This document shows, piece after piece, positions 30,096 through 49,195 of a DNA stretch of 64,000 nt. The DNA is from Brevundimonas sp. (GTDB lineage Bacteria > Pseudomonadota > Alphaproteobacteria > Caulobacterales > Caulobacteraceae), in the NCBI RefSeq assembly GCF_019636155.1, contig NZ_JAHBYB010000004.1, positions 155,564 to 219,563 on the forward strand, written 5' to 3'. Both the position numbers and the translations under genes were made by a program. The notes beneath the pieces are model-generated. The model was not told where the DNA came from. It was given only the letters and a program-made list of their open reading frames with translations, and did not search any database. Numbering within the stretch: the stretch's first letter is position 1; the number at the start of each line of letters is the position of its first letter.

Positions 30096-32579
30096 ATGAC
30101 CGCCACATCCCTGCGAACGCTCGATATACCCGTGCTCGGCATGACCTGCGCCAGTTGTGTGGGGCGGGTCGAGAAAGCTATCCGGGCAGCCCCCGGCGTC
30201 AGAAGCGCCACGGTGAACCTCGCCGCCGAACGTGCGCGGGTGGAACTGGATGACGTGGGGTCTGCGGCGGCCGTGACCCAGGCGATCCGCTCCGCCGGCT
30301 ACGAACCGATCGAACGCATTATCGAACTGAAGATCGGCGGCATGACGTGCGCGAGTTGCGTCGGCCGGGTCGAGCGCGCGCTGAAGGCCACGCCGGGCGT
30401 TCTGGACGCCAGCGTCAACCTGGCGACCGAGAGAGCCACGGTCCGGGTGCTGGAGGGCGCCGCTGATGCGCGCGCCTTGACGGATGCAGTGGCCAAGGCG
30501 GGCTACACCGCCGAGGCGGCGTCCGCGCCGGACACGACCAGCGAGGATCGGGAGCAGGCGTCGCGGGCGGCGGAAATCCTTAGTCTCGGTCGTGCCGTCG
30601 CCATCGCGGGCGCCGCGACCCTGCCGCTGTTCGTCATCGAGATGGCGCTGCACTTCGTTCCGGGCGCCCACGCCTGGCTTATGGACTCGATTGGCATGAC
30701 GCCCTGGCGGATCGTCAGCTTCCTGCTGGCGACCTTCGTGCTCTTCGTCCCGGGTCTGCGCTTCTATCGAAAGGGCGTGCCCAACCTGATCCGGCTGACG
30801 CCGGACATGAACTCGCTCGTCGTGCTGGGCGCCACCGCCGCCTGGGCCTTCTCGACGGTCGCCACCTTCGTCCCTCAGTGGCTGCCGGCCGGAACCGCCA
30901 ACGTCTATTTCGAAGCCGCCGCCGTGATCGTCACGCTGATCCTTGTCGGCCGCTGGTTCGAGGCCCGCGCCAAAGGGCAGACCAGCCAGGCCATTCGTCG
31001 CCTGATGACGCTCCAAGCCAAGACGGCGCGCGTGGAGCGGGACGGGTCTGAGATCGAGCTGCCGATCGATCAGGTCACGCCAGGCGACGTGATCGTGGTT
31101 CGGCCCGGTGAGCGCGTTCCGGTCGACGGCTCGGTGCTGTCCGGCGCCTCCTTCGTTGACGAGTCCATGCTCACCGGCGAGCCGATCCCGGTGGAGAAGG
31201 TCGAGGGCGCCAAGGTCGTCGGCGGCACGATCAATACGACGGGTGCCTTCCGTTTCCGGGCCGAGAAGGTGGGTTCCGAGACCGTGCTGGCGCAGATCGT
31301 GCGCATGGTCGAGGCGGCCCAGGGCGCCAAGCTGCCGATCCAGGCGCTGGTCGACAAGGTGACCGGCTGGTTCGTTCCCGCTGTCATCGCCATCGCTGTC
31401 GTGACCTTCGGCGTCTGGGTGGTGTTCGGACCGCAGCCGGCGCTGGGCTTCGCCCTGGTCAACGCCGTCGCCGTGCTCATCATCGCCTGCCCCTGCGCCA
31501 TGGGACTGGCCACCCCGACCTCGATCATGGTCGGGACCGGCCGCGCCGCCGAACTCGGCGTCCTGTTCCGCAAGGGCGAGGCGCTTCAGGCGCTTCAGGG
31601 CGTCGAGGTCGTCGCCTTCGACAAGACGGGCACCCTGACCGAGGGGCGGCCGGAACTAACCGACCTCACCGTGGCCGAGGGCTTCATCGAGGACGAGGTG
31701 CTGAGCCTGGTCGCCGGGCTGGAGACGCGCTCGGAGCACCCCATCGCCCGCGCCATCATTCAGGCCGCCGAGGCGCAAGGCCTTCCCGTTCCTGATCCGG
31801 ACACCTTCTCCTCGCGTCCCGGTTTCGGCGCCGAGGGTCGGGTCGGCGGCCGGTTTGTGCAAGTCGGCGCTGACCGCCTTATGCTCGGTCTCGGCCTCGA
31901 CCTGTCCGCCTTCGCCGATCAGGCGCAGTGGCTGGGTGAAGAAGGCAAGAGCCCCCTTTATGCCGCGATCGACGGCCGTCTCGCCGCCATCATCGCGGTC
32001 GCCGATCCGATCAAGGCCACCACCTCCGCCGCTATCGCCGCCCTTCACGCCCTCGGGTTAAAGGTGGCCATGGTCACCGGCGACAACCGCCGGACCGCGG
32101 AGGCCGTGGCTCGACGTTTGGGCATCGACGAGGTGCGCGCCGAAGTTCTGCCGGACGGCAAGGTGGAGGCCGTTCGCGCCCTTCAGACCGGCGGCCGGCG
32201 GGTCGCCTTCGTGGGGGATGGCGTCAATGACGCGCCGGCTCTGGCGGCGGCCGATGTCGGGCTCGCCGTCGGCGGCGGCACGGATGTCGCGATCGAGAGC
32301 GCCGATGTGGTCCTGACCGGTGGCGACCTGCGGGGCGCCGTGAACGCCGTCGCCCTCTCGCGGGCGACGATGCGCAACATCCGCCAGAACCTGGTCTGGG
32401 CGTTCGGCTACAACGTAGTGCTGATCCCGGTCGCCGCAGGACTGCTCTTCCCCGTGTTCGGCTGGTTGCTGTCGCCCATGCTGGCCGCCGGCGCCATGGC
32501 CCTGTCCAGCGTCAGCGTCCTCACCAACGCGCTGCGCCTCCGTGGCTTCAAGACCCGCTTCGAAGGAGTTGTCGCATGA
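30096..32579 (+). CDS. copA: Cu(I)-translocating P1B-type ATPase
   Basis: Two GMTCASC domains; CPC, DKTGTLT, SEHP, GDGVND and YN motifs. Confidence 0.95.
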
Positions 32580-33702: not shown

Positions 33703-33953
33703 AGATCGCGCGTCCGCCCTCCGCCGACACCGCCTGACTTGCGCCCAGGTCGCCTTTGATTCATGGTTCGCCCGCCGGCGCTCGCGCCGGTGGGGCCTGG
33801 AATCCCCTGTGCGACATCTGATCATCGACGGCCCCGCGCGCGACGCGGATGTCGGTTGCCGACGGCTTCGGACCCGTGCGTTCTTGCGCGTGCGCCCGGC
33901 GGCGCGGCTGCGTCGGGATTCCGGACCTCTCGCGGAGAGGCCGGAGAGGTGTG

Positions 33954-34442
33954 GTGACAGAGGCGAAGCAGCTTGGCGCGGACGGACGGGACGGTTTGAA
34001 CCGCCTGTACCGTCAATACGCCCCCTGGCTGGGTCGCCGCCTTCGCGCGCGCGTGGGCCCAGACGCCGCCGCCGACGTCGTACAGGAGACCTATATACGC
34101 GCGGCGCCCTACGCCCTTGCGGACATCCGCCATCCCAAGGCCTTCCTTCTGCGGATCGCCATGAATCTCCTGCGCGACGAGAGCCGCCGCGAGGCCCGCA
34201 AGAACCGGGAGACCGAGGGGGCCCCGTCTCCGGAAGTGGAGGCCGCCCACCAGTTCGATCATGTCCTGCTGTCTCAGGTCATCCGCTCGATGCCGCCGCT
34301 CTACCGCAACGTCTTCGTTCTGAACCGCTTTGGCGGTATGACTTATCCTGAAATCGCCCTGACGCTCGAGATAAGCGTGAAGACGGTGGAATGGCGAATG
34401 GCCAGGGCGATCGAGTACTGCGCGTCTCGGCTGGATCTGTAG
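33954..34442 (+). CDS. fecI: FecI-like ECF sigma factor
   Basis: DVVQETY, AFLLRIAMNLLRD and TYPEIA...SVKTVEWRM; GTG start after GGAGAGG. Confidence 0.85.
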   Translation: MTEAKQLGADGRDGLNRLYRQYAPWLGRRLRARVGPDAAADVVQETYIRAAPYALADIRHPKAFLLRIAMNLLRDESRREARKNRETEGAPSPEVEAAHQFDHVLLSQVIRSMPPLYRNVFVLNRFGGMTYPEIALTLEISVKTVEWRMARAIEYCASRLDL

Positions 34443-34451
34443 GCAAGACGG

Positions 34452-35426
34452 ATGACCATCGAGGGTGACGTCGACATCAGGCGGAGGGAAGCGGCTGAGT
34501 GGTTTGCTCGGCTCAACCAGCGCACGGTCACGACCGCGGACGTGAAGGGGTTCAGCGAGTGGCGCCGCGACCCCGAGAATGCGCGGGCCTTCAGTCGTGT
34601 CGAGGCCATGTGGGACGCGGCCGGCGCCCTGGCCAAAAGCCCGGAGATGTCGGCGCTCGCGCGAGAGGCGGCAGGTCTGCGCCCCCCCCCCAAACGGCGT
34701 TCGACGACCGGCCGCCTCCTACCGATCGGCGCCGCCGGCGCCTTGGCGCTGGCCTTCGGCGCGACTGCTTTCGTCTGGCTGTCCCAGCAGCCGACGCGCT
34801 ACGCCACGGCGGTAGGGGAACAACGCACCTTTCAACTTGAGGACGGCTCGCGCATCACGCTGGACACGGCGTCGGAGGTCGCCGTGCGCTTCAACGATTC
34901 CCGCCGTTCGGTCACTCTCGCAACCGGCCAGGCCATGTTCGATGTCGAAGGCGATCCGGGACGGCCCTTTGTTGTCGCGGCCGGCAACACCCGGGTGACG
35001 GCGGTCGGCACCCGCTTCGATGTCCGACGATCGGGCGCAGGCGCTCGGGTTGTTCTCGTCGAAGGGCGGGTCGATGTCCGGCGGGAGGCCGCGTCTGACG
35101 GTCAGTGGACCCTGGCGCCCGGTCAGCAGGTCACGACCTCGACGGATCGTCCGACGGTCGCGGCCGCGAACCTGCCGGCCGCCACCAGCTGGACCACGGG
35201 GCGGCTGACGTTCGAGAGCACGCCGATCGGCGAGGCCGTGGCGGAGATGAACCGCTACAGCCGCGTGTCGATCGAGCTGCGGGACGAACGAATCTCATCG
35301 ATCCAGATCAGCGGCGTGTTCAACACCGGCGACGTCGACGGCTTCGTCGCCGCGCTGAGCGACCTCTACGCCCTTCGGCCGACGGAGACCGACGATGGCC
35401 GAATCATTCTCACCGGTCCGGCCTGA
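34452..35426 (+). CDS. fecR: FecR-like anti-sigma/signal transducer
   Basis: EAAEWFARL, YATAVGEQR..LEDGS, AVGTRFDV and W..GRL motifs. Confidence 0.9.
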   Translation: MTIEGDVDIRRREAAEWFARLNQRTVTTADVKGFSEWRRDPENARAFSRVEAMWDAAGALAKSPEMSALAREAAGLRPPPKRRSTTGRLLPIGAAGALALAFGATAFVWLSQQPTRYATAVGEQRTFQLEDGSRITLDTASEVAVRFNDSRRSVTLATGQAMFDVEGDPGRPFVVAAGNTRVTAVGTRFDVRRSGAGARVVLVEGRVDVRREAASDGQWTLAPGQQVTTSTDRPTVAAANLPAATSWTTGRLTFESTPIGEAVAEMNRYSRVSIELRDERISSIQISGVFNTGDVDGFVAALSDLYALRPTETDDGRIILTGPA

Positions 35427-35445
35427 AATTAATCCGCCCTCGACT

Positions 35446-35472
35446 TAGGGGAACCTCCGCGACCCAACGTCT
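35446..35472 (+). promoter_or_regulatory. Candidate FecI-type ECF promoter of the TonB receptor
   Basis: TTAGGGGAACC-N12-CGTC upstream of the receptor gene. Confidence 0.4.
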
Positions 35473-35510
35473 CCTCCCCAGCCCGCACATCCGCGGGTAG
35501 AAAATGGGGG

Positions 35511-38471
35511 ATGGTCATGGGCCAGGGTTTCACTTCGACGGCGGTTGCCGCATTGATGCTGGGCGTCGCGACGCCGGTCATCGCGCAATCGAGCGATGTC
35601 GCGCGCCGCTTCGATATCGCGGCGGGACCGCTCGACCGCACCCTGCCCGCCTTCGCCCGCCAGAGCGGCCTTCAGATCCTCTATCCGAGCGCCCTCGTGG
35701 CGGGTCGCCGGTCGCCGGCCGTCAGCGGCGACCTGACGCCCGAGGCCGCGCTGACGCTGCTGCTGCGCGATTCCGGGCTGACCTATCGCCAGAGCCGCCC
35801 CACGGTCTTCGTTCTCGTCGATCCGACGGCCCGGGCGGATGCAGGCGAGACAGACGCGACCCAGCTCGAAGAGATCGTCGTGACCGGCACCTATCTGCGC
35901 GGCGCCGACAGCCCCTCGCCGGTGACGGTCGTCACCCAGGCGGACGTCGAACGGCAGGGCCGAGCGACCGTCGCGGAGACCCTCGCGGCCATGCCGCAGA
36001 ACTTCACCGGTTCCGCCTACGAAGGCTCGACGAATAGCGGGGCCGACCGTTCCGGGCGCAATGTCGGATCCGCGACTGGCGTCAACCTCCGCGGCCTCGG
36101 CGCCGACGCGACCCTCGTGCTGGTCAACGGGCGGCGGGTCGCCGGAACCGGCAATGCAGGGGATTTCGCGGACATTTCGAACATCCCGTCCAGCGCCATC
36201 TCTCGGGCGGACGTCCTTCTTGATGGCGCATCGGCTCTCTATGGCGCTGACGCCGTCGGCGGCGTCGTCAACATCATCCTGAAGTCCCGCTTTGAAGGCG
36301 CCGAGACCCGGGTCCGCGTCGGCGGTACGAGCGACGGCGGGGCCGAGGAGTTCCTCTTCTCCCACGCCGGAGGTCTGAGCTGGGAAAGCGGCAGCGTCGT
36401 CGCCGCCTACGAGTATCACAATCGCAGCGAGCTCCAGGGCGCGGAGCGCGACGCCACAGCGGACGCCGACCTCCGACGCTTCGGAGGCACCGACCGCCGC
36501 CTCCTCACAGCTTCACCCGGAAACATCGTCCGCCTCGACGCAGCCACCGCGACCTATATTCCGCTGTTCGCGATCCCCTCCGGGCAGAATGGCGTCGGCC
36601 TCGCGCCCGGCGACTTCATCGCCGGGCAGATCAACCGCACCAATCAACTAGAAGGCCAGTGGTTTCTGCCTCATCAAGAACGTCAGAGCCTTTTTCTAGC
36701 GGCAAGACAGAACCTGCCGGCCGGATTCAGTTTGGACGGCGATATCCGATACACCGAGCGCGACTTCTTCCTGAAGACCAGCGCGGACGCGGGGACCTTC
36801 ACCGTCACCGCCGCCAATCCTTACTTCGTCTCGCCGACCGGCTCGACGTCACATGACATCGCCTACTCGTGGGTGAACGATCTCGGACCGGGCCTGTCGG
36901 AAGGACGAACCGAAAGCCTCGGTGGTGCGCTCGGCGTCTCGGGCGAACTGCTCGGCTGGAGCGTCTCGGCCTATGCCAGCGGCGCACAGGAGACCACCGG
37001 CCGCCGGCTATCCAATCGTGTGCAGACAACCTTCCTGCAGGAGGCTCTGGGCGCACGAGCGGACATACCGACCACGACCTTCAGGACCGCGACGGACGGC
37101 TTCTTCAACCCGTTCGGCGGCCCGGCCGCGAACTCGGCGACTATCCTGGCGCACATTGGCTCGGGCTACACCGACGCCGATTACGTAAGCACCGTGTCTT
37201 CGTTCAACCTCAAGACCGATGGGACGGTCCTCGAGTTGCCCGGTGGTCCGTTGCAGGCTGCGTTCGGTCTCGACTTCCGCGCCGAGCAGTTTGAGTCGGG
37301 TGGGGAGAGCTTCCTGTCCGGGACCGCTCCGCGCGTGACCGCGCCGGTCTCGTTCGAACGGGACGTCTCCTCGGCGTTCGCCGAAGTCCGCGTACCCATA
37401 TTCGGCCCGTCCAATGCTCGCCCCGGCCTCGAGCGTCTGGAACTGTCGCTGGCCGGGCGAGTCGAAGACCACGAGGGCGTGGGGAGGACGAGCAACCCCA
37501 AGGTCGGCCTGCTCTACGGACCAACGACCGATCTGGTGTTGCGTGCCTCCTGGGGGACGTCCTTTCGCGCGCCATCTCTGAGGGAGCTGCAGAGCGCCTA
37601 TCAGATCGGCCCGTCGTTCCTGAACCGCGGCGGCGGCAACGTCCTGACCCTTATTCAGTACGGAGGAAACCCCGACCTCAGACCGGAGACAGCGGATTCC
37701 CTTACAGCAGGCTTCGTCTGGACGCCGGCGGCCTACGACGGTCTGCGCCTCGAGGGGAACTGGTTCCGCACGCGATTTAACGACCGCATCGGCAATCCGG
37801 TCATCCAGAACCTCGTCAACGCGCTGAACGACCCGGCGCTGGCGCCCTTTGTTCGCTATGTCTCTCCCACGACGTCTGCGGAAGACCGGGCTCTCGTCCA
37901 GTCGCTGCTCGACCATCCGGGCAACTTCAACCCGACGGTCTTCCCGGCGACGTCCTACGGCGTCATCGTCGACAACCGCTTCGTTAATGCGGCGAGCGTC
38001 GAGGTCGAAGGTCTGGACCTGTCCGCACGGTATCGGTTCGACTTCGCCGCCGGCCAGGCAATGGTCGACACGACCATCACCCATCTGCTGACCAACAATC
38101 GCCAGATCACGGCTACCTCCCCCACGGAGCATCTTCTCGGGGATCCGAACTTCCCGGCCCGATGGCGGGGTCGCGCCGGCAGTCAGTGGGTCCGCGGCCC
38201 GATCACCCTGGGCCTGATCGCCAACTATGTCAGCGGGGGGCGCGATCCGCTGACCAATCGCGAGATCGACGACTGGACCACCTTCGACGGTCAGGTGCGC
38301 TACGATTTCGCGGCGGGTTGGGGGGAAGGTCTCTCACTCAGCCTCAATGTGCTGAACCTCTCCAATGCGGCGCCGCCATTCTACGACTCCCCAAACGGGG
38401 TCGGCTTCGACGGCGCCAATACGAACGCGCTCGGGCGGCAGGTGTCGCTCCAACTCGTCAAGCGCTGGTGA
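35511..38471 (+). CDS. TonB-dependent transducer (receptor with N-terminal signalling domain)
   Basis: Signal peptide, STN domain, EEIVVTG TonB box, LYGADAVGGVVNII plug, C-terminal W. Confidence 0.93.
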   Translation: MVMGQGFTSTAVAALMLGVATPVIAQSSDVARRFDIAAGPLDRTLPAFARQSGLQILYPSALVAGRRSPAVSGDLTPEAALTLLLRDSGLTYRQSRPTVFVLVDPTARADAGETDATQLEEIVVTGTYLRGADSPSPVTVVTQADVERQGRATVAETLAAMPQNFTGSAYEGSTNSGADRSGRNVGSATGVNLRGLGADATLVLVNGRRVAGTGNAGDFADISNIPSSAISRADVLLDGASALYGADAVGGVVNIILKSRFEGAETRVRVGGTSDGGAEEFLFSHAGGLSWESGSVVAAYEYHNRSELQGAERDATADADLRRFGGTDRRLLTASPGNIVRLDAATATYIPLFAIPSGQNGVGLAPGDFIAGQINRTNQLEGQWFLPHQERQSLFLAARQNLPAGFSLDGDIRYTERDFFLKTSADAGTFTVTAANPYFVSPTGSTSHDIAYSWVNDLGPGLSEGRTESLGGALGVSGELLGWSVSAYASGAQETTGRRLSNRVQTTFLQEALGARADIPTTTFRTATDGFFNPFGGPAANSATILAHIGSGYTDADYVSTVSSFNLKTDGTVLELPGGPLQAAFGLDFRAEQFESGGESFLSGTAPRVTAPVSFERDVSSAFAEVRVPIFGPSNARPGLERLELSLAGRVEDHEGVGRTSNPKVGLLYGPTTDLVLRASWGTSFRAPSLRELQSAYQIGPSFLNRGGGNVLTLIQYGGNPDLRPETADSLTAGFVWTPAAYDGLRLEGNWFRTRFNDRIGNPVIQNLVNALNDPALAPFVRYVSPTTSAEDRALVQSLLDHPGNFNPTVFPATSYGVIVDNRFVNAASVEVEGLDLSARYRFDFAAGQAMVDTTITHLLTNNRQITATSPTEHLLGDPNFPARWRGRAGSQWVRGPITLGLIANYVSGGRDPLTNREIDDWTTFDGQVRYDFAAGWGEGLSLSLNVLNLSNAAPPFYDSPNGVGFDGANTNALGRQVSLQLVKRW

Positions 38472-38477
38472 TCCGCC

Positions 38478-40868
38478 ATGCGCAACACATTGATCACTGC
38501 GCTCGGCGCACTCGCGCTCACATGCCCGTCGTCCGCCCAGTCGGAGCCGCTCACCCTCGAAACCCTGCTCGGCCTGGAGGCCTTCGGCCGGATCGAGATC
38601 GATCCTTCCGGTGCCGTCGCCGTTTTCGAGGAGCGCCGCGCGCGTGGCGATCTTCCGCGCTATGACCTGCAGCCCGAGGGCGCTCTCAGGTACGCCAGTC
38701 TGTACCGTTTCGACGTCGAGACCCCGGCCAATGTCCGCCCCCTTCTGCCGATGGACGATGACGCCGGCTACACCATGGGTCCGTTCTCACCCGACGGCTC
38801 GCGGCTGATCGTCTTTCGTCTTCAGGACCTGACGTTTCGGCTGGGTATCGTTGACCTGCGGACCGGGGCTGTCGCCTGGACCGATCTTTCACCGGAGAGC
38901 GGCGCCTGGGGGCGGTCGGTCCAATGGATCTCGGACGTCGAGGTCCTCGTGCTCGGCATGCCGGGCGGGGCCCTGCCGCCGCGTCTCGCCATGCAGAACG
39001 TGACCCAGACCCACCTCCCCGATCTCTGGGCGCAGGCCGCCCGGGGGGAGCCGTCCTTTGTGTCGGTCGGACTGGGTGCTCCGGAGGAGGTCCGCGAAAC
39101 CCGCGCGCTATGGCGGGTGAACGCCGACACGGGCACGGCCACCGTCGTCACAGAGGGCGACTTCCTGGATTTCGAGGCGTCCCCCGACGGCAAGCACATC
39201 GCAGTGCTCAAGGACGGCCCTCTTGCCCCGCCCCCCGGCCTCGAAGCGTCGACCGAGTTTCGCAGGGCGCGTTCGTTACGCCTCGTCGAGACGCAGACGG
39301 GCTTGTCGGTGGACCCGCCCGAGGCCGTCGATATCTCGACCAGCCTCCTCGGCTGGGCTCCGGACTCCTCTGCGGTGCTGGTGACCGTTGTCGGCGCCGA
39401 ACCCGCCCGGCTACTCTCCATTACGCCCCACGGGCAGGTTCAAGAGCGGACGCCGGCCGGCGTGTCGCTTGACACGACGGCCGACGTGTTCGGGAGCCCA
39501 ACGACGCACGCAGCCTGGCTTGGCGCCGATGTGGTCGTTCGAGGAACACGCGACGGCGAAACGGGCTGGTGGTCTGAGCGAGCGTCGGAGGTCATCGCTG
39601 TGAACACTTTGAGCGACAGCGCGCGCGTGGTCGCCCAGGGACGACAGGCGGCTCTGTTCGAGGATCGGGGTCGCATCCTTCGCCTTGGCTCCGATCTGTC
39701 GCCGGAGGATCTCGGCCCGACAGGCACGCGTTCGCGCGCCCTCGGCATCTTCGGACATCGGCGCCAGACCGATCCGATGGGCGCAAGCGAGGCGGAGGTC
39801 ATCGGAGACAGCGGTCAGTTGTGTCGCGTCTCCGCAGATGCCGAGCCCGCACCGCCACCGTGCGTCGCCGCGATGCCCGGAGCCAGCGTCAGTTGGAGTC
39901 AGAGGATCAGTGTCGGCATCGGAACCGAGGGCCGCGCGCCGAACCGCCTTGAGGTCCGTAGCGAGACGGGCTCGGTGATCATCAGACGTCTCAACCCGGA
40001 GCTGGACGCCGTCTGGGTGCCCGAGCCTCGCCTGATCAATGGCCCGAACGGTGCGCGAGGCTGGCTCTATCTGCCCGAGACGGCGGAGAACCAGCCCCCG
40101 CCGGTCATCGTCATTCCCTACCCAGGGAAGGCCTATCCCACAGCGCCATCGGCCATGCGCCCGGAGGCGGTGCAGATGACGCTGAACGGGGGACTGCTGG
40201 TCGCGGCGGGCTATGCCGTGATCTATCCGGACTTGCCGACGAACGCCGAACCGTCCGCCGGCCTCGCGGACAGGATCCTCGCCGTCGTCGACGCCGCAGG
40301 CGACGATGGCTCCATCGATACTGATCGGATCGGCCTCTGGGGTCACAGTTTCGGAGGCTGGTCGGTCGTCATGAGCGCCACCCAGTCGCCACGCTTCAAG
40401 GCGGTCGTCGCCCTCAATGGCCCTTACAACCTGCAACTCGCGCTCTCCGATATGTCGCCGAACCAGCGCATTCTAGGTGGAAACACCACCGACGCCGTGA
40501 GCGGTGCACGATGGCTCGAAACCGGGCAGGCGGGCATGGTCCAGTCCTACTGGACCGACCCGGAGCGCTACAGACGAGGGAGTCCTTTCGAGAATGCCGA
40601 TCGAATTGCAGCGCCGGTCCTTCTGATCCACGGCGAGTTGGACTTCCTAGGGGCACACGCCGAGCAGATGTACGCCGCACTTGTGAGACTTCGACGGCCG
40701 GCAGCACTCACCTATCTGTTCGGCGAGGATCACAGTATCCACAATCCCGGCAACGCTAGGATCTACTACGATCAACTGACGGCTTGGTTCGACCGATACC
40801 TCAGACCCGAGGTGCCGCGATCCGGGCCTGCCATCGCCGTAGCCAGGCCTCCGTCAACGCCAGGGTGA
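38478..40868 (+). CDS. Lasso peptide isopeptidase (AtxE2-like, S9 family)
   Basis: Signal peptide; GHSFG nucleophile elbow, HGELD, EDHSI; context next to lasso B/C genes. Confidence 0.85.
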   Translation: MRNTLITALGALALTCPSSAQSEPLTLETLLGLEAFGRIEIDPSGAVAVFEERRARGDLPRYDLQPEGALRYASLYRFDVETPANVRPLLPMDDDAGYTMGPFSPDGSRLIVFRLQDLTFRLGIVDLRTGAVAWTDLSPESGAWGRSVQWISDVEVLVLGMPGGALPPRLAMQNVTQTHLPDLWAQAARGEPSFVSVGLGAPEEVRETRALWRVNADTGTATVVTEGDFLDFEASPDGKHIAVLKDGPLAPPPGLEASTEFRRARSLRLVETQTGLSVDPPEAVDISTSLLGWAPDSSAVLVTVVGAEPARLLSITPHGQVQERTPAGVSLDTTADVFGSPTTHAAWLGADVVVRGTRDGETGWWSERASEVIAVNTLSDSARVVAQGRQAALFEDRGRILRLGSDLSPEDLGPTGTRSRALGIFGHRRQTDPMGASEAEVIGDSGQLCRVSADAEPAPPPCVAAMPGASVSWSQRISVGIGTEGRAPNRLEVRSETGSVIIRRLNPELDAVWVPEPRLINGPNGARGWLYLPETAENQPPPVIVIPYPGKAYPTAPSAMRPEAVQMTLNGGLLVAAGYAVIYPDLPTNAEPSAGLADRILAVVDAAGDDGSIDTDRIGLWGHSFGGWSVVMSATQSPRFKAVVALNGPYNLQLALSDMSPNQRILGGNTTDAVSGARWLETGQAGMVQSYWTDPERYRRGSPFENADRIAAPVLLIHGELDFLGAHAEQMYAALVRLRRPAALTYLFGEDHSIHNPGNARIYYDQLTAWFDRYLRPEVPRSGPAIAVARPPSTPG

Positions 40869-42516
40869 CGAGCCTGGCGAACCCTCCCTGCCAGACCAGG
40901 GCTTCGCGTGTCGTCTCGTCCGCGAGGCCCTGCGGCAGGAGCCCAGCTGCGGCCAGTTCGCCTTCGAGCAGATAGCTGCGAAGAAAGTCCAGATTCCTGG
41001 CCACGGCTTCGCCGTAGAAGGCCCCCAATTCCCCCTTGGAACGGCGATTGAATATGGAAGCAGGGATCGCGTCGGCATAGGCGGCACGTGCCGCGAAACG
41101 GTCACGGCCGCCCCACGTCAAGTCGACAGAGGACCAGGCCAGACCGGCCTCCATGACGGGCTGGCTCAGGAGCGGATTGACGCACGGGCCATATCGCCCC
41201 CTCACGGCGTGTCCCTGAAAAGCCTGAGAATTGACCAGCCCGAGGATTTGGGTGGCCTTTGCGGGCGGCACCCCCTGAAGATCGTCGAGCCAAGGGTGTC
41301 TCCGGTCGCGCAATGCGCGCGTGTGGGCCCGTCGCGCCTTCAGCCAAGCGTTCGGCCAGAGCGACTGGCCGGTCCAGCGCGCGGCGCTGTGAAGCACCTC
41401 GGGCCGCGTGCGCAGCTGTCTTTCATGGACCTCATCGAATGCAATCAGATAACTCGGCATCTGGAAAAACACGACGTCGCCACCCTGCCCCGTCAGCGAG
41501 CCCCAGGCGCCCGAGCTCTCGACCCTCGCCGCGATGTCGTCGTTGTAGTCCGTGTCGAGGTCGTTAACCGGGGGCCTGAAGGCATCGGCCGAGAGCGCGA
41601 GCCGCGCCGCCGACAAATTTAGTCCGTTGCGTTTCACTTCAGTCAGGCGGTAGCCATGTCGCTCGACCACCGGACGCGCGAAGGCGCGCTCGTCCCCCTC
41701 CGGATCGTCTACGAAGTGGTTGACCCACTGCGTGATACGGGCGCGCTGATGATCGCTGAGCGCGCCCGCTATAATCGCCGAATCCAGCCCTCCGCTAACT
41801 TCCACGACCCAAGCTCGCTCGCCCGCCAGCGCTCGCACACTTCGATCGACTACCTCACGAAGATCCGGCCGAACCTGCTCCCGCGCCCTCCGGTAGACCT
41901 CCGACGGTCGCCAGATCTGCCGCGACCGAACCCCCGCCGGACCGATGTGGAGGAGCGCGCCGGACGCAACCGGAGTGAGAGCCGACAGGGCCAGTTCGTG
42001 GCGATAGCCGCCGCCCCGCGTGAGAAGCCCCCTCATCGATTCCCAGTCGATTGTGAGATTATCGGGCAGCAGGCAGTCTAGGGCGGGCGGGGCTGTCGGG
42101 GCGATAACCGTCACACCGTCCTTACGCCAGGCGACCGCCTCGACGGCCCCGGACGGGTCACGGAGGATCGCAGCGTCGCCTGATGTCCGCCGAACCACGA
42201 CGTATCGCCCCCAGAAGGTCGACACGATATCGCTCGCGCGGTTCGCGTCGAGAGCGCGACAGGCAACGACGCCCCGTTCCTCCGGCGATAGCGATCGCCC
42301 GACATGGTCGAATATCTCTCCGACCATAACCCCGTGACCGTCGAGAGCCGCCACGATCTCGAGCCGGGACGTCGCGGGCGCGTAGACGGCTATGAAAGGG
42401 TGTGAGACGCGGCGGCTCCATCCCGCCCCAGCCAAGCGTCGGGCGATCTTCCGCGACAGCGTCTCCAGGGCCCCCGCGTCATCGGCCGCGAGCACGACAT
42501 AGGCATCAGCGCTCAT
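40801..42516 (-). CDS. Lasso cyclase (asparagine synthetase-like C protein)
   Basis: SGGLDS and LTGQGGD motifs, VNPLLSQP; start trimmed to MSADAY. Confidence 0.88.
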   Translation of the reverse strand: MSADAYVVLAADDAGALETLSRKIARRLAGAGWSRRVSHPFIAVYAPATSRLEIVAALDGHGVMVGEIFDHVGRSLSPEERGVVACRALDANRASDIVSTFWGRYVVVRRTSGDAAILRDPSGAVEAVAWRKDGVTVIAPTAPPALDCLLPDNLTIDWESMRGLLTRGGGYRHELALSALTPVASGALLHIGPAGVRSRQIWRPSEVYRRAREQVRPDLREVVDRSVRALAGERAWVVEVSGGLDSAIIAGALSDHQRARITQWVNHFVDDPEGDERAFARPVVERHGYRLTEVKRNGLNLSAARLALSADAFRPPVNDLDTDYNDDIAARVESSGAWGSLTGQGGDVVFFQMPSYLIAFDEVHERQLRTRPEVLHSAARWTGQSLWPNAWLKARRAHTRALRDRRHPWLDDLQGVPPAKATQILGLVNSQAFQGHAVRGRYGPCVNPLLSQPVMEAGLAWSSVDLTWGGRDRFAARAAYADAIPASIFNRRSKGELGAFYGEAVARNLDFLRSYLLEGELAAAGLLPQGLADETTREALVWQGGFARLVTLALTEAWLRRWQARIAAPRV

Positions 42517-42518
42517 GG

Positions 42519-43184
42519 TCAGATCGCCATGATGGGACGGTAAATCGTCAGGGTGTCGGGCGACTGGCTGACGCAATGCTCGTCCACCTGCAGCCAGCAG
42601 TGCGCGAGGAAGGGCCACACGCGGACACCGAAGACCCAGTCCGCATCGAGGTCGGCCGCGTTCAGAAACCGGAGCAGCAGCTCGGCCTGAAACAGGCAGG
42701 CGCCGACGGCCGGGGCGTAGGGGAGCAGTTGGCGAAAGAGACGGACCCGCGCCGCGATGGCGTCGAGATCGTCTCGGCGGCCGCGCCGCCCGGATACTTG
42801 GCGCGCCAGCGACTGAAGCGTCGGCTTGCGTCGCGCTGTATCGGCCCAGAGCATCGCGAAAGTTGCTATATCCACGGCGGACGGCCGCCCGGCCTCAACG
42901 TCCGGAAGCCGGCGAAGCGGAATCGGCGGCGGTGGCGACCGCCGAACCGACGGCGCACCCGATTGCAGAAGTTCGTTCGCGGCCAGATCGAGCATCAGAT
43001 CCATCGGCGCCCGCAATGACCCGCCGTCGACCCGAACCTGGGCGCAGTCTGGGACAAGAAAATAGCCGTCCGTCGAAAGGTCCAGGAGGACGAGATCGGA
43101 GCCCAACTTTACAGCATGCACTGTCTCGGCGAGTTCGCCGCTCTCGTGGCGTTCTCCGAACGAAGGCGAGACGACGGTCTGCAT
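42519..43184 (-). CDS. Lasso B protein (fused RRE plus transglutaminase-like leader peptidase)
   Basis: DLVLLDL..DGYF RRE; ACLFQA, FGVRVWPFLAHCWLQ catalytic C/H. Confidence 0.9.
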   Translation of the reverse strand: MQTVVSPSFGERHESGELAETVHAVKLGSDLVLLDLSTDGYFLVPDCAQVRVDGGSLRAPMDLMLDLAANELLQSGAPSVRRSPPPPIPLRRLPDVEAGRPSAVDIATFAMLWADTARRKPTLQSLARQVSGRRGRRDDLDAIAARVRLFRQLLPYAPAVGACLFQAELLLRFLNAADLDADWVFGVRVWPFLAHCWLQVDEHCVSQSPDTLTIYRPIMAI

Positions 43185-43236
43185 AAGGCGTTTCCGGTCA
43201 GGAAATGACTGTTGCTGTACGGTGCGGGGCGGCAGA

Positions 43237-43262
43237 TCGGGCCGTCAGCGAGGACGGCCCGA
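43237..43262 (-). terminator. Stem-loop between precursor A1 and B gene
   Basis: 10-bp stem TCGGGCCGTC/GACGGCCCGA, 6-nt loop. Confidence 0.65.
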
Positions 43263-43268
43263 CCGTCA

Positions 43269-43388
43269 TCAGCCGACCGGCATGTCCCACTTGAGGTGGG
43301 AGTTGAGCTCGACGAGCTCGCCGTCCACCGCGGCGCGGGTCAGGCGCCGCGCCTGGCCCAGCCGCAGTACTCGAATGGTGGCTTTCAT
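43269..43388 (-). CDS. Lasso precursor A1: leader MKATIRVLRLGQARRLTR, core AAVDGELVELNSHLKWDMPVG
   Basis: GGAG RBS 7 nt upstream, LRLG.AR.LT leader with Thr at -2, Glu9 acceptor. Confidence 0.9.
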   Translation of the reverse strand: MKATIRVLRLGQARRLTRAAVDGELVELNSHLKWDMPVG

Positions 43389-43483
43389 CGCCATTCTCCA
43401 TGTTGTCGTGATACCCCTTGAGATCATCGCAACGGTCGGGGCGTGCCGCGCGTCGGGGCGACCCGGTCGGGCAGCCCCTTCGG

Positions 43484-43612
43484 TCAGGCGCCCGGAGTGA
43501 CGTCGTAGCGCTCGAGCGGGTTCAGCTCGATGAACGTGCCCTCGACGCCAGCACGAGTGAGCTTGCGAGCGGCGCCTAGGCGAACGAGGCGCGAGATGCT
43601 CTTGGTGGTCAT
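43484..43612 (-). CDS. Lasso precursor A2: leader MTTKSISRLVRLGAARKLTR, core AGVEGTFIELNPLERYDVTPGA
   Basis: AGAGGAG RBS, same leader motif, Thr at -2, Glu9 acceptor; translated by hand, absent from the ORF track. Confidence 0.9.
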   Translation of the reverse strand: MTTKSISRLVRLGAARKLTRAGVEGTFIELNPLERYDVTPGA

Positions 43613-43682
43613 GGTCGTCTCCTCTTTCTGAAGGTCGACAGAAGGTCGACGACGAACCATCAGCGCCCATCCACAAATCGAT

Positions 43683-44249
43683 TCAAACGATATTGCGGAT
43701 GTATTCGGAGCCGTCGGCGTTCAACCGCCTGACCCGCGCGGCTAGGCCGCCGGCTGCGGTCCGCCACCGCGCGTAGTAGGCATCGAGGTAGTCCAGCTCC
43801 GGCCCCCCCGATGGGGATATCGGCCCGTTGAGCCGGCGCAAGGGAGCGAGCCGCCGCCGGACCCGCATGAGACTTTCGACCAGCGGCTGGCTCTCGCAAT
43901 GATCCAGCAATGCGACGATCCAGGTCTCAACGGCTGCGTCCGAGCCGTCGCTTAAAGGAGGCGCAGCGGCCGAGCAGGTCGCTGCGAGCCGGACGTGCGC
44001 GGCCTCGAGATCGAGCAAGCCGATGATGTCTTCCACCGGCGCGGGGCGGGTGAAGTATCCGAGGCCTCGTCGATCCTCGACGAGGCCTTCCCCGCAGAGC
44101 CGGGACAGAGCCTCCCGAACGGGGCTGGTGCTGAGTTTCAGCGATGCGGCGATATCGGCCACCGGTAGATGTTGTCCGGGCGCGAGCCCTTGCTCGAGAG
44201 CCTCGCGCAGGCTGGTCACCGCGGAGCCGAAAGGATCGCGCTGTCTCAC
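43683..44249 (-). CDS. GntR family transcriptional regulator
   Basis: LAPGQHL....IAASLKLSTSPVREALSRL..EGLV wHTH; GntR is typical of isopeptidase-type lasso clusters. Confidence 0.85.
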   Translation of the reverse strand: MRQRDPFGSAVTSLREALEQGLAPGQHLPVADIAASLKLSTSPVREALSRLCGEGLVEDRRGLGYFTRPAPVEDIIGLLDLEAAHVRLAATCSAAAPPLSDGSDAAVETWIVALLDHCESQPLVESLMRVRRRLAPLRRLNGPISPSGGPELDYLDAYYARWRTAAGGLAARVRRLNADGSEYIRNIV

Positions 44250-44341
44250 GGGCCATCCCCGCAAGAAATGCGCCCCGCCCGTAGGTCAACGACCCTCCGG
44301 TTTCGGGGCGCGCACGCGGCGAGATAGCGCCTATACTCAAA

Positions 44342-44359
44342 CCCGCAAGAACATTGCGC
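44342..44359. promoter_or_regulatory. Candidate operator CCCGCAA-N5-TTGCGC (copy 2)
   Basis: Overlaps a plausible -35 (TTGCGG) of the gntR-lasso promoter in an AT-rich divergent region. Confidence 0.5.
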
Positions 44360-44486
44360 CATGACCGCAGCTTTTATGCTATTGATCCTATTAGGCTTTC
44401 ATTTGATGCGAGGCTGAGGCATTTTTCAACCTGCAGGGGTGAAGGGAGCCCTTCCTAAAGCCAAAGACGGGGTGGTGGACCGAAGC

Positions 44487-44978
44487 ATGGACAGTCGGCA
44501 AACCCCGTCACCCAACGCGGTGCTCTCCGCCAGCCTTCGTCTCATCCGGTCTCACAGGCGAATGCGGACCATCGATGTGGCCGCCGGGATGAACATGGCC
44601 CTGAGGTCCTACGAGCACTTCGAGTCCGGCGCCGGCCGCATCAACCTGGAGCGGATCCACCGCTTCGCCGAGGTCACCAACAGCGACGCGCACGCCATCC
44701 TCGCCGCGCTGGCGATCGGCTCTCCGGCCTTCGCCTTGCGGTGCGCGGACAACAAGCTGGCGACCATCATCGCGGTCGTCCTTCAGGAGTTCGACGAGGA
44801 GGCGGGAGACGCGATCGCCGACCTCGACGCCCGGACGATCATCAACGCCTTCACCAAGACGCTGAAGGATCTGGCCGACCAGTCCGTCCGCAAGGACGCT
44901 GAAGCCGAAGCCTGGCTCGCGGAGCGGAAAGGGCGACTGATGACGCCCGCGCGGGACGACGGCTCCGGCGACGCCTGA
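44487..44978 (+). CDS. XRE-family HTH regulator
   Basis: LRLIR....MRTIDVAAGMNMALRSYEHFESG helix-turn-helix. Confidence 0.8.
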   Translation: MDSRQTPSPNAVLSASLRLIRSHRRMRTIDVAAGMNMALRSYEHFESGAGRINLERIHRFAEVTNSDAHAILAALAIGSPAFALRCADNKLATIIAVVLQEFDEEAGDAIADLDARTIINAFTKTLKDLADQSVRKDAEAEAWLAERKGRLMTPARDDGSGDA

Positions 44979-45026
44979 CCGACCGCGAATTCCCGTCCGC
45001 AACCTTCCCGGATCGACGCGGCGGCC

Positions 45027-45305
45027 TTGTCGGCGGCCAATGGCGAGGTGCGCCTTGATCCCTCCCCAACCTCATCAAACGCCGCCCTGGGCGACCTGAC
45101 TCCGCGCCAGCAGGCGTGTCTCGAACTCGCCGCCGAAGGCCTGACCTCGGCGGCGATCGCCGAACGCCTCGGAGTCTCACCCCGAACAGTTGACGAGCAT
45201 CTGACCTCGGCGTGCGAGGCGCTGGGTGTTCGGACTCGCATTCAGGCGGTTGCGCGGCTGGCGCAGGGCGAGCGCCGCGGTGAGGCCCGCAGTTTCCGTC
45301 CGTAG
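45027..45305 (+). CDS. Second stand-alone LuxR-type HTH regulator
   Basis: LTPRQQACL.L...GLTSAAIAERLGVSPRTVDEH; start uncertain. Confidence 0.8.
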   Translation: MSAANGEVRLDPSPTSSNAALGDLTPRQQACLELAAEGLTSAAIAERLGVSPRTVDEHLTSACEALGVRTRIQAVARLAQGERRGEARSFRP

Positions 45306-45382
45306 ATTTTCGGCGGGAAGGTCGCGGGTCGTTCGCGGGCGACGGATCGGATGAGGTGACGGCCTTCAGCCAGGAGCCCTGC

Positions 45383-46000
45383 ATGCTCGATCTCGTCGCG
45401 GTTCTCGCCCTGTCCCAGGTCTGTGCGCCCTCCGTCGCTCCCGAGACGTTGGCGGCCATCTCCCATGTCGAGAGTCGCTTCGATCCGCTGGCGATCGGCG
45501 TCAACCGCGGCGGACGTCGTCCGCCCCGCGCTCGCAACGCCGCCGAGGCGGCGCGATCGGCGAGGGGGCTACTGGCCGACGGGGCAAACATCGACCTCGG
45601 TCTGGCGCAGATCAACAGCAGCAACCTGCACTGGCTTGGCCTGACGGTGGAAGATGCGTTCGACCCCTGTCGCAACCTCGCGGCGGCCGCGACCGTCCTG
45701 CGCGCGGGATATCGGGCTACCAGCAGCGCCGCTTCGGACCAGCAAGCCGCCCTGCGCATCGCGCTCTCCCGGTACAATACCGGCGATGCGGAACGAGGCT
45801 TCCGAAACGGATACGTCGGTCGAGTCGAGGATGCCGCGATAGCGCTCAGGCTGGCCCGTCCAGCGGCCGCAGCCGCCGCCACGGACACGCGCGCGCCGCC
45901 GATTTCGCCTTCGCTTGAAGCCGCGCCGCTGCCCCCCTGGGACATCTTCGGCCGCGCCCGGGCCGACCTGTTCGTCATCTCAAACCCAGCCGCACGGTGA
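45383..46000 (+). CDS. virB1: Lytic transglycosylase
   Basis: HVESRFDPLAIGVN, DLGLAQINS, ALSRYNTG; AGGAG RBS. Confidence 0.9.
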   Translation: MLDLVAVLALSQVCAPSVAPETLAAISHVESRFDPLAIGVNRGGRRPPRARNAAEAARSARGLLADGANIDLGLAQINSSNLHWLGLTVEDAFDPCRNLAAAATVLRAGYRATSSAASDQQAALRIALSRYNTGDAERGFRNGYVGRVEDAAIALRLARPAAAAAATDTRAPPISPSLEAAPLPPWDIFGRARADLFVISNPAAR

Positions 46001-46005
46001 TCCCG

Positions 46006-46317
46006 ATGACTTCAGCTGCGCACCTTCGTCGCCCCGCCCGTCATCTGGGCGCGCTCCTGTGCATCGCCCTGGCCGCGACCGCGCTGACCGCCCAGCCCGC
46101 CCTGGCGTCCGCCAACGTCGAAGGGCTGCTGCAGAACGTGGTCGACATGCTCACGGGCAACACCGCCCGGCTCCTTGCGGTGCTCGCGGTGGTGGTGGTC
46201 GGCATTCTGTGGATGTTCGGTCTGTTCGACCTTCGCCGGGCGGCCATCGTCGTGCTCGGGATCGTGGTGGTCTTCGGTGCGGCCGAGATCGTCAACCTGA
46301 TCACCGGGGGCTCGTGA
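46006..46317 (+). CDS. virB2: Pilin
   Basis: Signal plus two hydrophobic helices, FGAAEIV. Confidence 0.88.
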   Translation: MTSAAHLRRPARHLGALLCIALAATALTAQPALASANVEGLLQNVVDMLTGNTARLLAVLAVVVVGILWMFGLFDLRRAAIVVLGIVVVFGAAEIVNLITGGS

Positions 46318-46499
46318 TGCCCTCCCCGGCGGCGACCCTCCTGATCGGCGCGATCGCCGCCTTGCTGGCGCTGTGTCTCGCCCAGGGCCTGGGCCTGATT
46401 TCGCCGAAGCGGTTCGCCCAGCTCGTGGGCGGCGCAGCCGGCGGGGTCGCTCTAATCTGCGCCGGCGTCTGGCTCGCGGAGGGAGGCGCCCATGGCTGA
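46317..46499 (+). CDS. Small hydrophobic protein (60 aa) between virB2 and virB3
   Basis: TGATG overlap with virB2 stop, overlap with virB3 start, two TM-like segments. Confidence 0.6.
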   Translation: MPSPAATLLIGAIAALLALCLAQGLGLISPKRFAQLVGGAAGGVALICAGVWLAEGGAHG

Positions 46500-46827
46500 G
46501 GAACGCCTAACGGAGGATCCCCTCTTCCTCGCCTGCACCCGCCCCGCCATGGTCATGGGGGTGCCGATGGAGGCCATGGGGGTCAACGTCATCCTCTCCG
46601 GCGTGGTGTTCCTCATCGGCGGGAGCCTGCTTTACCTGCTCGTCGCACCGGCCCTTCACCTGGTGTTCCGCGCAATCTGCCGCGCCGATCACAACGCCTT
46701 CCGCCTCCTCTTCGTCTACGTCGACACCAAGGGCCGCTGCCGCAACGGCGCGCTGTGGGGCGGCAGCTCCGTGTCGCCTCTGCCCGTCGTGCGCCGTTAC
46801 GTCGTCGCGGAGCTGCGCCGTGGCTGA
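46492..46827 (+). CDS. virB3: T4SS inner membrane protein
   Basis: DPLFLACTRPAMVMGVP signature. Confidence 0.9.
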   Translation: MAEERLTEDPLFLACTRPAMVMGVPMEAMGVNVILSGVVFLIGGSLLYLLVAPALHLVFRAICRADHNAFRLLFVYVDTKGRCRNGALWGGSSVSPLPVVRRYVVAELRRG

Positions 46828-49195
46828 CGGCGTCGCCTCCCGGTCGCGTCTGCGCCGCGAGACCGAAGTCCGGTCCCACCTCCCCTATGCGCGCCATGTG
46901 AACGACCACGTCGTCGCCCTCGACAGCGGCGCGCTCATGATGGTCTTCCAGGTCGCGGGCGCGAGTTTCGAGACGGCCGACGCGCGCGACCTCAACGACT
47001 GGCACCTCAAGCTGAACCAGGCGTGGCGAAACCTCGCCGACGAGAGGCTGGCGGTCTGGCATCATATCGTCCGACGGGAGGTTCACCCGGAGCCTTCCCG
47101 AGGCCATCGGTCGGCGTTCGCGGCCAGCCTGGCCGCCGACTACGACGCCCAGATGTCGAGCCGGCGGCTCTGGATCAACGAGCTGTTCGTCACCCTCGTG
47201 CTGCAGCCCGGCCGCGACCGCACCGACCGCGCCGCCGCCATGATGCGACGCCTGCGGCAGGCGCGCCGTGACGACGGCGAGGCGATGGTCGCGCAGGTCC
47301 GCCGGCTCGAGGAGGCCGGTCGTGATCTGGCCCAGTATCTGGATCGCTACGCCCCGCGCCGCCTGGGGCTGCACGAGCGGGGCGGTCTCTGGTTCTCGGA
47401 GCCCCTGGAGGTCGTGGGCCTGATCCTGACGGGACGACGTTCGCCCGCGCCGCTCGTCTACGGCCACCTCGGCGCGGCCGCCTATACGATCAGGGCGATC
47501 TTCGGCCGCGAAACCGTGGAGCTGCGGGGCGCGGCCGGCGAGCGTTTCGGCGGAATTCTCGCCATCAAGGAGTACCCGGCGACGACACGCCCAGGCCTTT
47601 GGGATGCGCTGCTCAACGCCCGCTTCGGCTTCGTCATGTCGCAGTCGTTCGCCTTCCTGTCGAAGGCGGCGGCGCGCGCGGTGATGGAGCGCAAGCAGAA
47701 CCAGATGGTGTCGGCCCGCGACAAGGCCGGCTCCCAGATCGCCGGCCTGTCTGACGCCCTGGATGATCTGGTCAGCAACCGGTTCGTGATGGGCGAACAT
47801 CAGGCGTCCGTCCTGGTCCATGGCGACACCCCCGTCGCCCTGGCGGACCATCTGTCGAAGGCGCGCGCCATCCTCGCCGACTCCGGCCTGGTGGTGGCAC
47901 GCGAAGATCTGGGGCTGGAGGCGGCGTTCTGGTCGCAGTTTCCGGGGGTCTTCTCCCGCCGCACCCGACCGGCGGCGATCACCTCGCGCAACTTCGCGGC
48001 GCTGGCCCCCCTGCACGCCCACCCGGTCGGCAAGGCGGACGGCAATCACTGGGGTCCGGCGGTCGCCGTTTTGCGTACGACGGCCGGGTCACCCTTCCAC
48101 TTCAACTTCCACGTCGGCGACGTGGGCCACACCTTCATCTGCGGCCCGTCGGGGTCCGGCAAGACGGTCGTCCAGAACTTCATGCTGGCGCAGCTGGAGC
48201 GGTTCGGCGCCCAGCAGATCTTCATCGACAAGGATCGCGGCGCCGAAATCTTCGTGCGGGCCAGCGGCGGGACCTATCTTGCGCTTCGCAACGGCGAGCC
48301 GACGGGCTTCGCCCCCTTCAAGGCGCTCCCGCCGTCTCCGTCCAACCGGGCCTTCCTCGTCCGGTTGATCCGCACGCTGGTCGCCCGGCCCGACGAGACC
48401 CTGTCCGTCGCCCAGGCCCGGTCGATCGACGAAGGCGTGTCGGCGCTCGAGGCGCTGCCGCGCGAACGCCGCTCCATCGCCGCCATGCGCAGTCTACTTG
48501 GCCAGGCGGACGCTGGCGGCATCGGCGCCCGTCTGGAACGCTGGCAGAAGGGCGGCCCGCTCGGCTGGGTGCTCGACAACGACGAGGACGCGCTCAGCCT
48601 CGAGGCCCGGTTCGCTGGCTTCGACATGACCCACGTCCTGGACCACGACGAGGTCCGGACCCCGGCCATGCTCTACCTGTTCCACCGCATCACGGAGCGG
48701 GTCGATGGTCGGCGGCTGGTCCTGGACATCGACGAGTTCTGGAAGGTGCTGGGCGACGCCGCCTTCACCGATCTGGCCCAGGACGGGCTGAAGACCTGGC
48801 GCAAGCAGAACGCCTTCATGGTGTTCGGCACCCAGTCGCCGGCGGACGTCCTGCGCTCGCCGATCGCCCACGCCATCCTGGAACAGTGCGCGACCCAGAT
48901 CTTCCTGCCGAACGCTCACGGCCAGGCGCGCGACTATGTCGACGGCTTCGGGCTGACGCAGGAGGAATTCCGGCTCGTGCGCGAGGAGCTGACGCCGGAG
49001 TCCCACCGCTTCCTCGTCAAGCAGGGCCACGACAGCGTCGTCGTCGAACTGAACCTCGACGGCATGGACGACGCCTTGGCGATCCTGTCCGGTCGCGCCG
49101 GGACCGTCGGCTTGCTGGACCGCATCCGCGCCGAGGTCGGCGACGATTACGCGCTCTGGCGCGCCCCCTTTCACGCCCAAAGGAGAATGTCATGA
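46820..49195 (+). CDS. virB4: T4SS ATPase
   Basis: GPSGSGKT Walker A, IDEFW, RKQN, TQSP. Confidence 0.95.
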   Translation: MADGVASRSRLRRETEVRSHLPYARHVNDHVVALDSGALMMVFQVAGASFETADARDLNDWHLKLNQAWRNLADERLAVWHHIVRREVHPEPSRGHRSAFAASLAADYDAQMSSRRLWINELFVTLVLQPGRDRTDRAAAMMRRLRQARRDDGEAMVAQVRRLEEAGRDLAQYLDRYAPRRLGLHERGGLWFSEPLEVVGLILTGRRSPAPLVYGHLGAAAYTIRAIFGRETVELRGAAGERFGGILAIKEYPATTRPGLWDALLNARFGFVMSQSFAFLSKAAARAVMERKQNQMVSARDKAGSQIAGLSDALDDLVSNRFVMGEHQASVLVHGDTPVALADHLSKARAILADSGLVVAREDLGLEAAFWSQFPGVFSRRTRPAAITSRNFAALAPLHAHPVGKADGNHWGPAVAVLRTTAGSPFHFNFHVGDVGHTFICGPSGSGKTVVQNFMLAQLERFGAQQIFIDKDRGAEIFVRASGGTYLALRNGEPTGFAPFKALPPSPSNRAFLVRLIRTLVARPDETLSVAQARSIDEGVSALEALPRERRSIAAMRSLLGQADAGGIGARLERWQKGGPLGWVLDNDEDALSLEARFAGFDMTHVLDHDEVRTPAMLYLFHRITERVDGRRLVLDIDEFWKVLGDAAFTDLAQDGLKTWRKQNAFMVFGTQSPADVLRSPIAHAILEQCATQIFLPNAHGQARDYVDGFGLTQEEFRLVREELTPESHRFLVKQGHDSVVVELNLDGMDDALAILSGRAGTVGLLDRIRAEVGDDYALWRAPFHAQRRMS

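Follow-up and report, generated by a model that had tools for sequence, protein, structure and literature searches.

The window analysed here, a stretch of 64,000 nucleotides from a Brevundimonas sp. contig, contains a group of genes in the order GntR-A-A-B-C, which converges with a second group, FecI-FecR-TBDT-S9 (Table 1). The two small precursor genes, A2 and A1, are co-directional and lie directly upstream of the lasso B and C genes on the same strand, and the cluster has no ABC exporter. The same architecture is almost constant among lasso clusters that contain an isopeptidase (PMC9266682), and the arrangement in the window is that of the canonical isopeptidase clade (astexin/caulonodin type).

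Table 1. Features of the lasso peptide locus, with positions counted from the first nucleotide of the window
Feature	Position	Strand	Remarks
FecI-type ECF sigma factor	33849..34442	+	
FecR-type anti-sigma factor	34452..35426	+	
TonB-dependent receptor (TBDT)	35511..38471	+	N-terminal STN signalling domain
S9 serine peptidase	38478..40868	+	signal peptide, beta-propeller and alpha/beta-hydrolase; putative isopeptidase by position
C, Asn-synthetase-like lasso cyclase	40801..42516	-	571 aa, ATG 42516
B, leader peptidase	42519..43184	-	221 aa; C-terminal transglutaminase-like Cys protease, N-terminal beta-rich domain
12-bp GC-rich hairpin directly 3' of A1	43235..43264	-	without T-run; z -2.15
Precursor A1	43269..43388	-	39 aa, Trp16 type; 18-aa leader ending LTR, 21-aa core
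GC-rich hairpin just 3' of the A2 stop	43455..43478	-	weak: whole spacer z -0.21, no better than shuffles
Precursor A2	43484..43612	-	42 aa, Tyr16 type; 20-aa leader ending LTR, 22-aa core
GntR-family regulator, directly upstream of A2	43683..44264	-	188 aa in public calls

Two tandem precursor genes

Translation of A2 gives the leader MTTKSISRLVRLGAARKLTR and the core AGVEGTFIELNPLERYDVTPGA, with Ala1, Glu9 and Arg15-Tyr16, and translation of A1 gives the leader MKATIRVLRLGQARRLTR and the core AAVDGELVELNSHLKWDMPVG, with Ala1, Glu9 and Lys15-Trp16. Both translations exactly reproduce those of an earlier reading made from the sequence only. This sequence-only reading had also placed an RBS before each gene, and we find the RBS-like (Shine-Dalgarno-like) GAGGAG 6 nt before the ATG of A2 and the Shine-Dalgarno-like GGAG 7 nt before that of A1. 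Its core consensus, A-x-V-[ED]-G-x3-E-L-N-x3-[RK]-[YW]-D-x3-G, fits both peptides. Its leader motif, LxRLGxARxLTR, is exact in A2 (LVRLGAARKLTR) but A1 reads VLRLGQARRLTR, and the motif common to both leaders is better written [LV][VL]RLGxARxLTR. Finally, the remark that neither gene was called holds for the ORF list of that reading, where the two frames appear only as longer ORFs with alternative starts (43484..43660 and 43269..43676), but public gene callers call both, as genes of 42 and 39 codons' worth of peptide (42 and 39 aa). The longer A2 start, ATG 43660 (58 aa), was rejected: that stretch contains the RBS, it is missing from more distant homologues, and the public callers take the 42-aa start.

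To examine the two ORFs independently of their own sequences, a hidden Markov model (HMM) was trained on 30 homologous precursors, all from other genomes and with the window's own rows left out, and compared with all 1173 six-frame segments of the window. The A2 and A1 ORFs scored 72.1 and 71.6 bits (E about 1e-21), and the next-best segment scored 7.8 bits (E 0.14). Since this independent model matches exactly A2 and A1, a chance origin of the two ORFs is excluded. The exact sequences of both are present in NCBI/ENA/Logan assemblies, that of A2 in at least 40 blocks of the public assembly collection. An NCBIfam search with both peptides matched no family, and a scan of 42900-44500 for consensus promoters and terminators gave nothing useful.

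Compared with close relatives, the A2 leader has a pN of 0-0.02 and a pS of about 0.2, which indicates purifying selection on it as a peptide. In the A2 core, pN and pS are about the same; the core of A1, with a pN of 0.02-0.08, is conserved and thus better kept than that of A2. RiPP precursors usually show this combination of a leader that is kept and a core that varies.

Predicted ring, cleavage site and plug

In an alignment of 32 precursors from 20 loci, only Met1, Gly-8, Ala-6, Leu-3, Thr-2 and core Glu9 were invariant. Thr-2 was found in all 32 homologous precursors and Glu9 is the sole invariant residue of the core, while the acidic core positions 4, 6, 14 and 17 vary. Because Glu9 and Thr-2 are fixed and the other acidic positions are not, the alignment points to Glu9 as the ring acceptor and to a cut after LTR. 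Lasso precursors with an Ala1-Glu9 ring are the best-supported reading of A2 and A1; it had been proposed from the sequence only, and the B and C genes that follow on the same strand support it too. Both cores have the features of class II precursors, namely a small residue at position 1 (Ala1) and an Asp or Glu at positions 7-9 (Glu9). Recomputed after water loss, the masses of the cyclised peptides are 2329.159 (A2) and 2261.115 Da (A1), as had been worked out by hand.

All 30 ELN-type family members carry a bulky tail residue, Tyr16 or Trp16. The earlier guess that these residues act as plugs agrees with LassoPred, which places the upper plug of caulonodin VI at residue 15; by homology, the ring would be flanked by Arg15 and Tyr16 in A2, and by Lys15 and Trp16 in A1.

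Two further observations concern the precursors of relatives. A third precursor with the core GKGGEFVELQVTHRYDLPLE occurs in some of them (L011, L013, L015 and L016, at about 2876-2998). This paralogue (G-KGGEFVELQ...) is one residue shorter, through a deletion after position 1, and has kept Thr-2 and the Glu, which predicts a Gly1-Glu8 ring of 8 residues, made by the same B/C pair that would act on the Ala1-Glu9 substrates; the retention of Thr-2 and Glu again supports the Ala1-Glu9 register. Separately, the Trp-type precursor has Cys for Arg at -1 (LTC/A..., where the slash marks the cleavage site) in L006 (2800-2919) and L012 (2678-2803), the result of a CGC to TGC change.

Biosynthetic enzymes and hairpins

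B scored 58 bits with PF13471 and 54.4 bits with NF033537, the NCBIfam model of the lasso B2 domain (cut-off 33), and its Cys163 and His195 are invariant. The AF2 model of B is confident (pLDDT 87.4) and has a beta-rich N-domain. Foldseek returned weak matches only, with leader-bound TbiB1 at rank 3 (E 0.1, probability 0.92), and the N-terminus of B had no Pfam PqqD match at E 0.1. From the model, an RRE-like N-domain that recognises the leader is plausible.

The C frame also contains a longer ORF that starts at GTG 42618 and overlaps B; the start in Table 1, which public callers likewise use, is very probably the real one. C matched PF00733 (Asn_synthase) with 57.5 bits against a cut-off of 21, and fell below the cut-offs of the narrower NCBIfam lasso-cyclase models (64 vs 300 and 19 vs 525). 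Sequence searches of the PDB with B and C gave no matches.

A hairpin occurs at the position of the post-A1 hairpin, after the last precursor gene, in 9/9 relatives compared, and three of the pairs are kept through changes on both sides, i.e. some of the changes are compensatory. It is likely to set the ratio of precursor to enzymes by stabilising the RNA or by attenuation, in keeping with an established way of increasing lasso yields, in which the A-B spacer is exchanged.

The S9 peptidase

The Ser624/Asp722/His752 triad of the S9 peptidase is invariant, and the confident model (pLDDT 87.6) consists of a propeller and a hydrolase domain. With NF033523, the AtxE2 equivalog model, the protein scored 52.7 bits against a cut-off of 400, over the catalytic domain only. 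In the fold comparison, SpI-IsoP (E 3e-26) was no better a match than generic S9 carboxypeptidases (E 9e-32), and a sequence search of the PDB returned generic S9 and cutinase matches only, with AtxE2 and SpI-IsoP absent. Since the AtxE2 score is below its cut-off, the fold match is not specific to SpI-IsoP and neither isopeptidase appeared in the PDB search, we assign a putative lasso isopeptidase role from the conserved position of the gene only. AtxE2 and SpI-IsoP are both shorter, by about 100 residues, than the S9 peptidase, which has diverged too far for the NCBIfam AtxE2 model to name it; public records describe its homologues as generic prolyl oligopeptidases and nothing more specific.

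Relatives in the Caulobacteraceae and the age of the duplication

All homologues of B that were found belong to Brevundimonas or other Caulobacteraceae. Matches at E <=1e-3 occurred in 58/399 sampled Caulobacteraceae species genomes (28/60 in the window's genus) and near-full-length matches (E <1e-17) in about 15 of the 399; the window's own genome (2.79 Mb, 40 contigs) has one such precursor pair only. In loci L001-L018, two or three precursors built in the same way lie in tandem upstream of B. The precursor family divides into two types, one encoded by the first gene (Tyr16, tail YD[IV][TP]PGA/E) and one by the second (Trp16, tail WDMPxx), and these form separate orthogroups through the whole Brevundimonas family. 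The sequence-only reading had explained the likeness of the two cores by duplication and divergence. The Tyr16/Trp16 split indicates that the duplication is older than the diversification of the family and not a recent local event.

Linkage to a conjugation operon

The whole lasso module (FecI-FecR-TBDT-S9 facing C-B-A-A-GntR) adjoins an xre-virB1-virB3-virB4 operon (window 33849-49195). Among the related species genomes with strong matches, 14/15 have the lasso cluster abutting the same type IV secretion system (T4SS) operon, as compared at the junctions of L060-L065, L067 and L078-L084. Identity to the window at these T4SS-linked loci was 75-93% for VirB4, 49-80% for B and 41-78% for the S9 peptidase; in the related genomes compared, conservation is higher in the T4SS genes than in the lasso genes. 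L064 (G240, genus g27) and L065 (G247, genus g7) are assigned to different genera, and share 93.8% DNA identity over 19.2 kb that include lasso and T4SS genes, as well as identical precursor cores. This identity suggests a recent transfer of the lasso/T4SS element between genera. No VirB or other T4SS genes were found within 6 kb of the Caulobacter caulonodin VI cluster. Just to the left of the lasso sensing genes, the window has a heavy-metal P-type ATPase with two HMA domains (30096-32579), which places the lasso cluster between metal-resistance cargo and conjugation genes.

It is conceivable, although we consider it unlikely, that the A2 and A1 peptides are diffusible signals of a conjugative element and not antibiotics or scavengers. 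If so, the lasso-receptor-FecR/FecI-isopeptidase module would be a fixed neighbour of xre-virB in this family of integrative and conjugative elements (ICEs), the element would detect whether other cells have the same peptide variant or another one and adjust its transfer or exclusion to this, and the fast-evolving A2 core and the S9 peptidase would be a specificity pair.

Proposed biosynthesis and alternative readings

From the comparisons above, we hold it to be highly probable that A2 and A1 both function as precursor genes, and that their cluster is a class II lasso cluster belonging to the isopeptidase clade. By analogy with the family, the N-terminal domain of B would bind the conserved leader through [LV][VL]RLGxARxLTR, and its Cys protease domain would cleave after Arg-1, directed by Thr-2, to free Ala1. 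C would then adenylate the side chain of Glu9 and link it to the amine of Ala1, closing the ring around a tail that is already folded. The result would be a 9-residue macrolactam with a threaded tail held by Arg15/Tyr16 (A2) or Lys15/Trp16 (A1), and the expected products are acidic peptides of 22 and 21 residues, with masses of 2329.16 and 2261.12 Da. The peptide may leave the cell and be taken up again by the TBDT, its uptake may be signalled through FecR/FecI, and the exported S9 peptidase may linearise it in the periplasm.

The presence of two precursors raises the question of whether both are used. Only one might be a productive substrate, the other being an unmatured duplicate, either in decay or with a regulatory role; this would fit the wide differences in yield from multi-precursor clusters (0.7 mg/L for caulonodin VII, 10 mg/L for VI) and the Cys at -1 of the Trp-type gene in L006 and L012. 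However, both types keep their frame, RBS, Thr-2 and Glu9 across loci in which B is only 49-80% identical, the Trp-type A1 has the better conserved core among close relatives, and caulonodins VI and VII have both been isolated. We regard a single productive substrate as distinctly improbable.

The peptides could also be processed in another register, with a cut after the Ala (giving Gly1-Glu8 in A2) or a ring on Glu4/Asp4, Glu6, Glu14 or Asp17. Among lasso peptides, the layout seen most often is Gly1 with a ring of 8 residues, and A2 can be read as LTRA/GVEGTFIE. Such a shifted cut, however, would put Thr at -3 and leave Ala1 or Val1 in homologues, and caulonodin VI, which has the same LTR/AG junction, has Ala1. 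The variation at positions 4, 6, 14 and 17 beside an invariant Glu9 also argues against the other acceptors, and rings of 4, 6, 14 or 17 residues fall outside the known range of 7-9; on these grounds we give different processing very little weight. Less weight still is due to the view that A2 and A1 are chance ORFs in GC-rich intergenic DNA from which no peptide is made. ORFs are abundant here, 149 of at least 30 aa overlapping the surrounding 14 kb, but the match to the independent profile, the conservation of position and frame with synonymous-biased change in the leader, and the spread of the exact sequence through public assemblies reduce its probability almost to nil. Two functional precursors with Ala1-Glu9 rings are the reading that we carry into the comparisons below.

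Significance

If so, two uncharacterised and unusually acidic Ala1-Glu9 cores are added to the small set of lasso peptides that do not begin with Gly1. The Tyr/Trp pair known from caulonodins VI and VII represents a widespread, old Caulobacteraceae family and not the curiosity of a single strain. About 30 natural core variants on one conserved leader could serve as a substrate-tolerance set for B and C and for studies of isopeptidase specificity. The peptides themselves are fairly ordinary and of the caulonodin VI/VII type, since related pairs occur in about 15/399 sampled genomes and the architecture is that of the textbook; the ICE linkage is the more unusual aspect. The biological role of lasso peptides of the isopeptidase clade is still unknown (PMC9266682), and the linkage to a conjugation operon, a separate finding, offers a concrete handle on it.

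Comparison with known lasso peptides

The A2 and A1 cores and four homologous tails were absent from the searchable literature, outside which most subscription journals lie, and within it we found no characterised peptide with an identical core, the finding that the sequence-only reading had named as counting against it. Literature on Brevundimonas and lasso peptides consisted of brevunsin and unrelated mentions only. Brevunsin (Brevundimonas diminuta; GDMGEEVIEGLVRDSLYPPAG), the only lasso peptide known so far from Brevundimonas, is of class II and from the same genus as the window, but its core is unrelated to A2 and A1, B of a B. diminuta-type locus is only about 33% identical, and no precursor of the window type was found upstream of B. 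diminuta-type B genes. The isopeptidase clusters of astexin and sphingopyxin (AtxE2, SpI-IsoP) resemble the window in having GntR, S9, TBDT and sigma/anti-sigma genes and no ABC exporter. AtxE2 and SpI-IsoP share the propeller and hydrolase fold of the window's S9 peptidase, although SpI-IsoP is only 14-15% identical to it in the fold alignment. Caulosegnin III (C. segnis; GALVGLLLEDITVARYDPM) has a Glu9 ring, an ARYDP tail and a multi-precursor cluster of the isopeptidase type in common with the window, but it begins with Gly1 and is without the Leu10-Asn11 motif.

The closest likeness is to the caulonodins. Caulonodin VI comes from Caulobacter sp. K31 and was reportedly described by Zimmermann et al. 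in 2014 (Chem Sci 5:4032). The sequence-only reading had likened the RYD tail to that of this peptide; Ala1, Glu9 and an RYD tail are correct for the core AGTGVLLPETNQIKRYDPA (PMC12427821). A degenerate DNA pattern for this core matched two genomes in a neighbouring genus (g27). The exact core occurs in the Caulobacter locus L070, where the precursors are MTKTKTRLIRFGSAKRLTR/AGTGVLLPETNQIKRYDPA and then MASPNYRLIRLGSAKHLTR/SGIGVLFPEPNMVRRWD, with leaders that end in RLIRFGSAKRLTR/AG... and RLIRLGSAKHLTR/SG.... L070 has the gene order of the window, GntR-A-A-B-C facing S9-TBDT-FecR-FecI, with the Tyr type first and the Trp type second. Identity to the window is 38% for B, 33% for C, 32% for S9 (full length) and 43% for the TBDT, and FecR and FecI are also present. 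Given the same gene order, the Tyr-first/Trp-second pair and the homologous B, C, S9 and TBDT, the pair in the window is the counterpart, in Brevundimonas, of the two caulonodins: A2 corresponds to the Tyr-type caulonodin VI and A1 to the Trp-type caulonodin VII.

Caulonodin VI and A2 are each the first of two tandem precursors and share Ala1, Glu9 (a 9-residue ring), Asn11, Arg15-Tyr16-Asp17 and a leader ending in RLTR. About 8/19 core positions are in common, and the precursors are identical in 21/43 alignment columns; the A2 core is 3 residues longer, with the tail VTPGA vs PA, and has a net charge of about -3 vs 0. Caulonodin VII (core SGIGDVFPEPNMVRRWD), like A1, is encoded by the second gene and has a Glu9 ring, Asn11 and, after a basic residue, Trp16-Asp17, but it begins with Ser1 and not Ala1 and ends at Asp17, where A1 continues with MPVG; the precursors of A1 and the VII-like peptide are identical in 13/40 alignment columns only. 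With 21/38 between caulonodin VI and the VII-like precursor, these identities are ambiguous as to whether the duplication preceded the split of the Caulobacter and Brevundimonas clusters; an earlier duplication has only the common gene order and the Tyr/Trp pattern in its favour. The A2 and A1 cores are undescribed, close cousins of caulonodins VI and VII, and, judged by their predicted cores, homologues of these peptides and not the same compounds.
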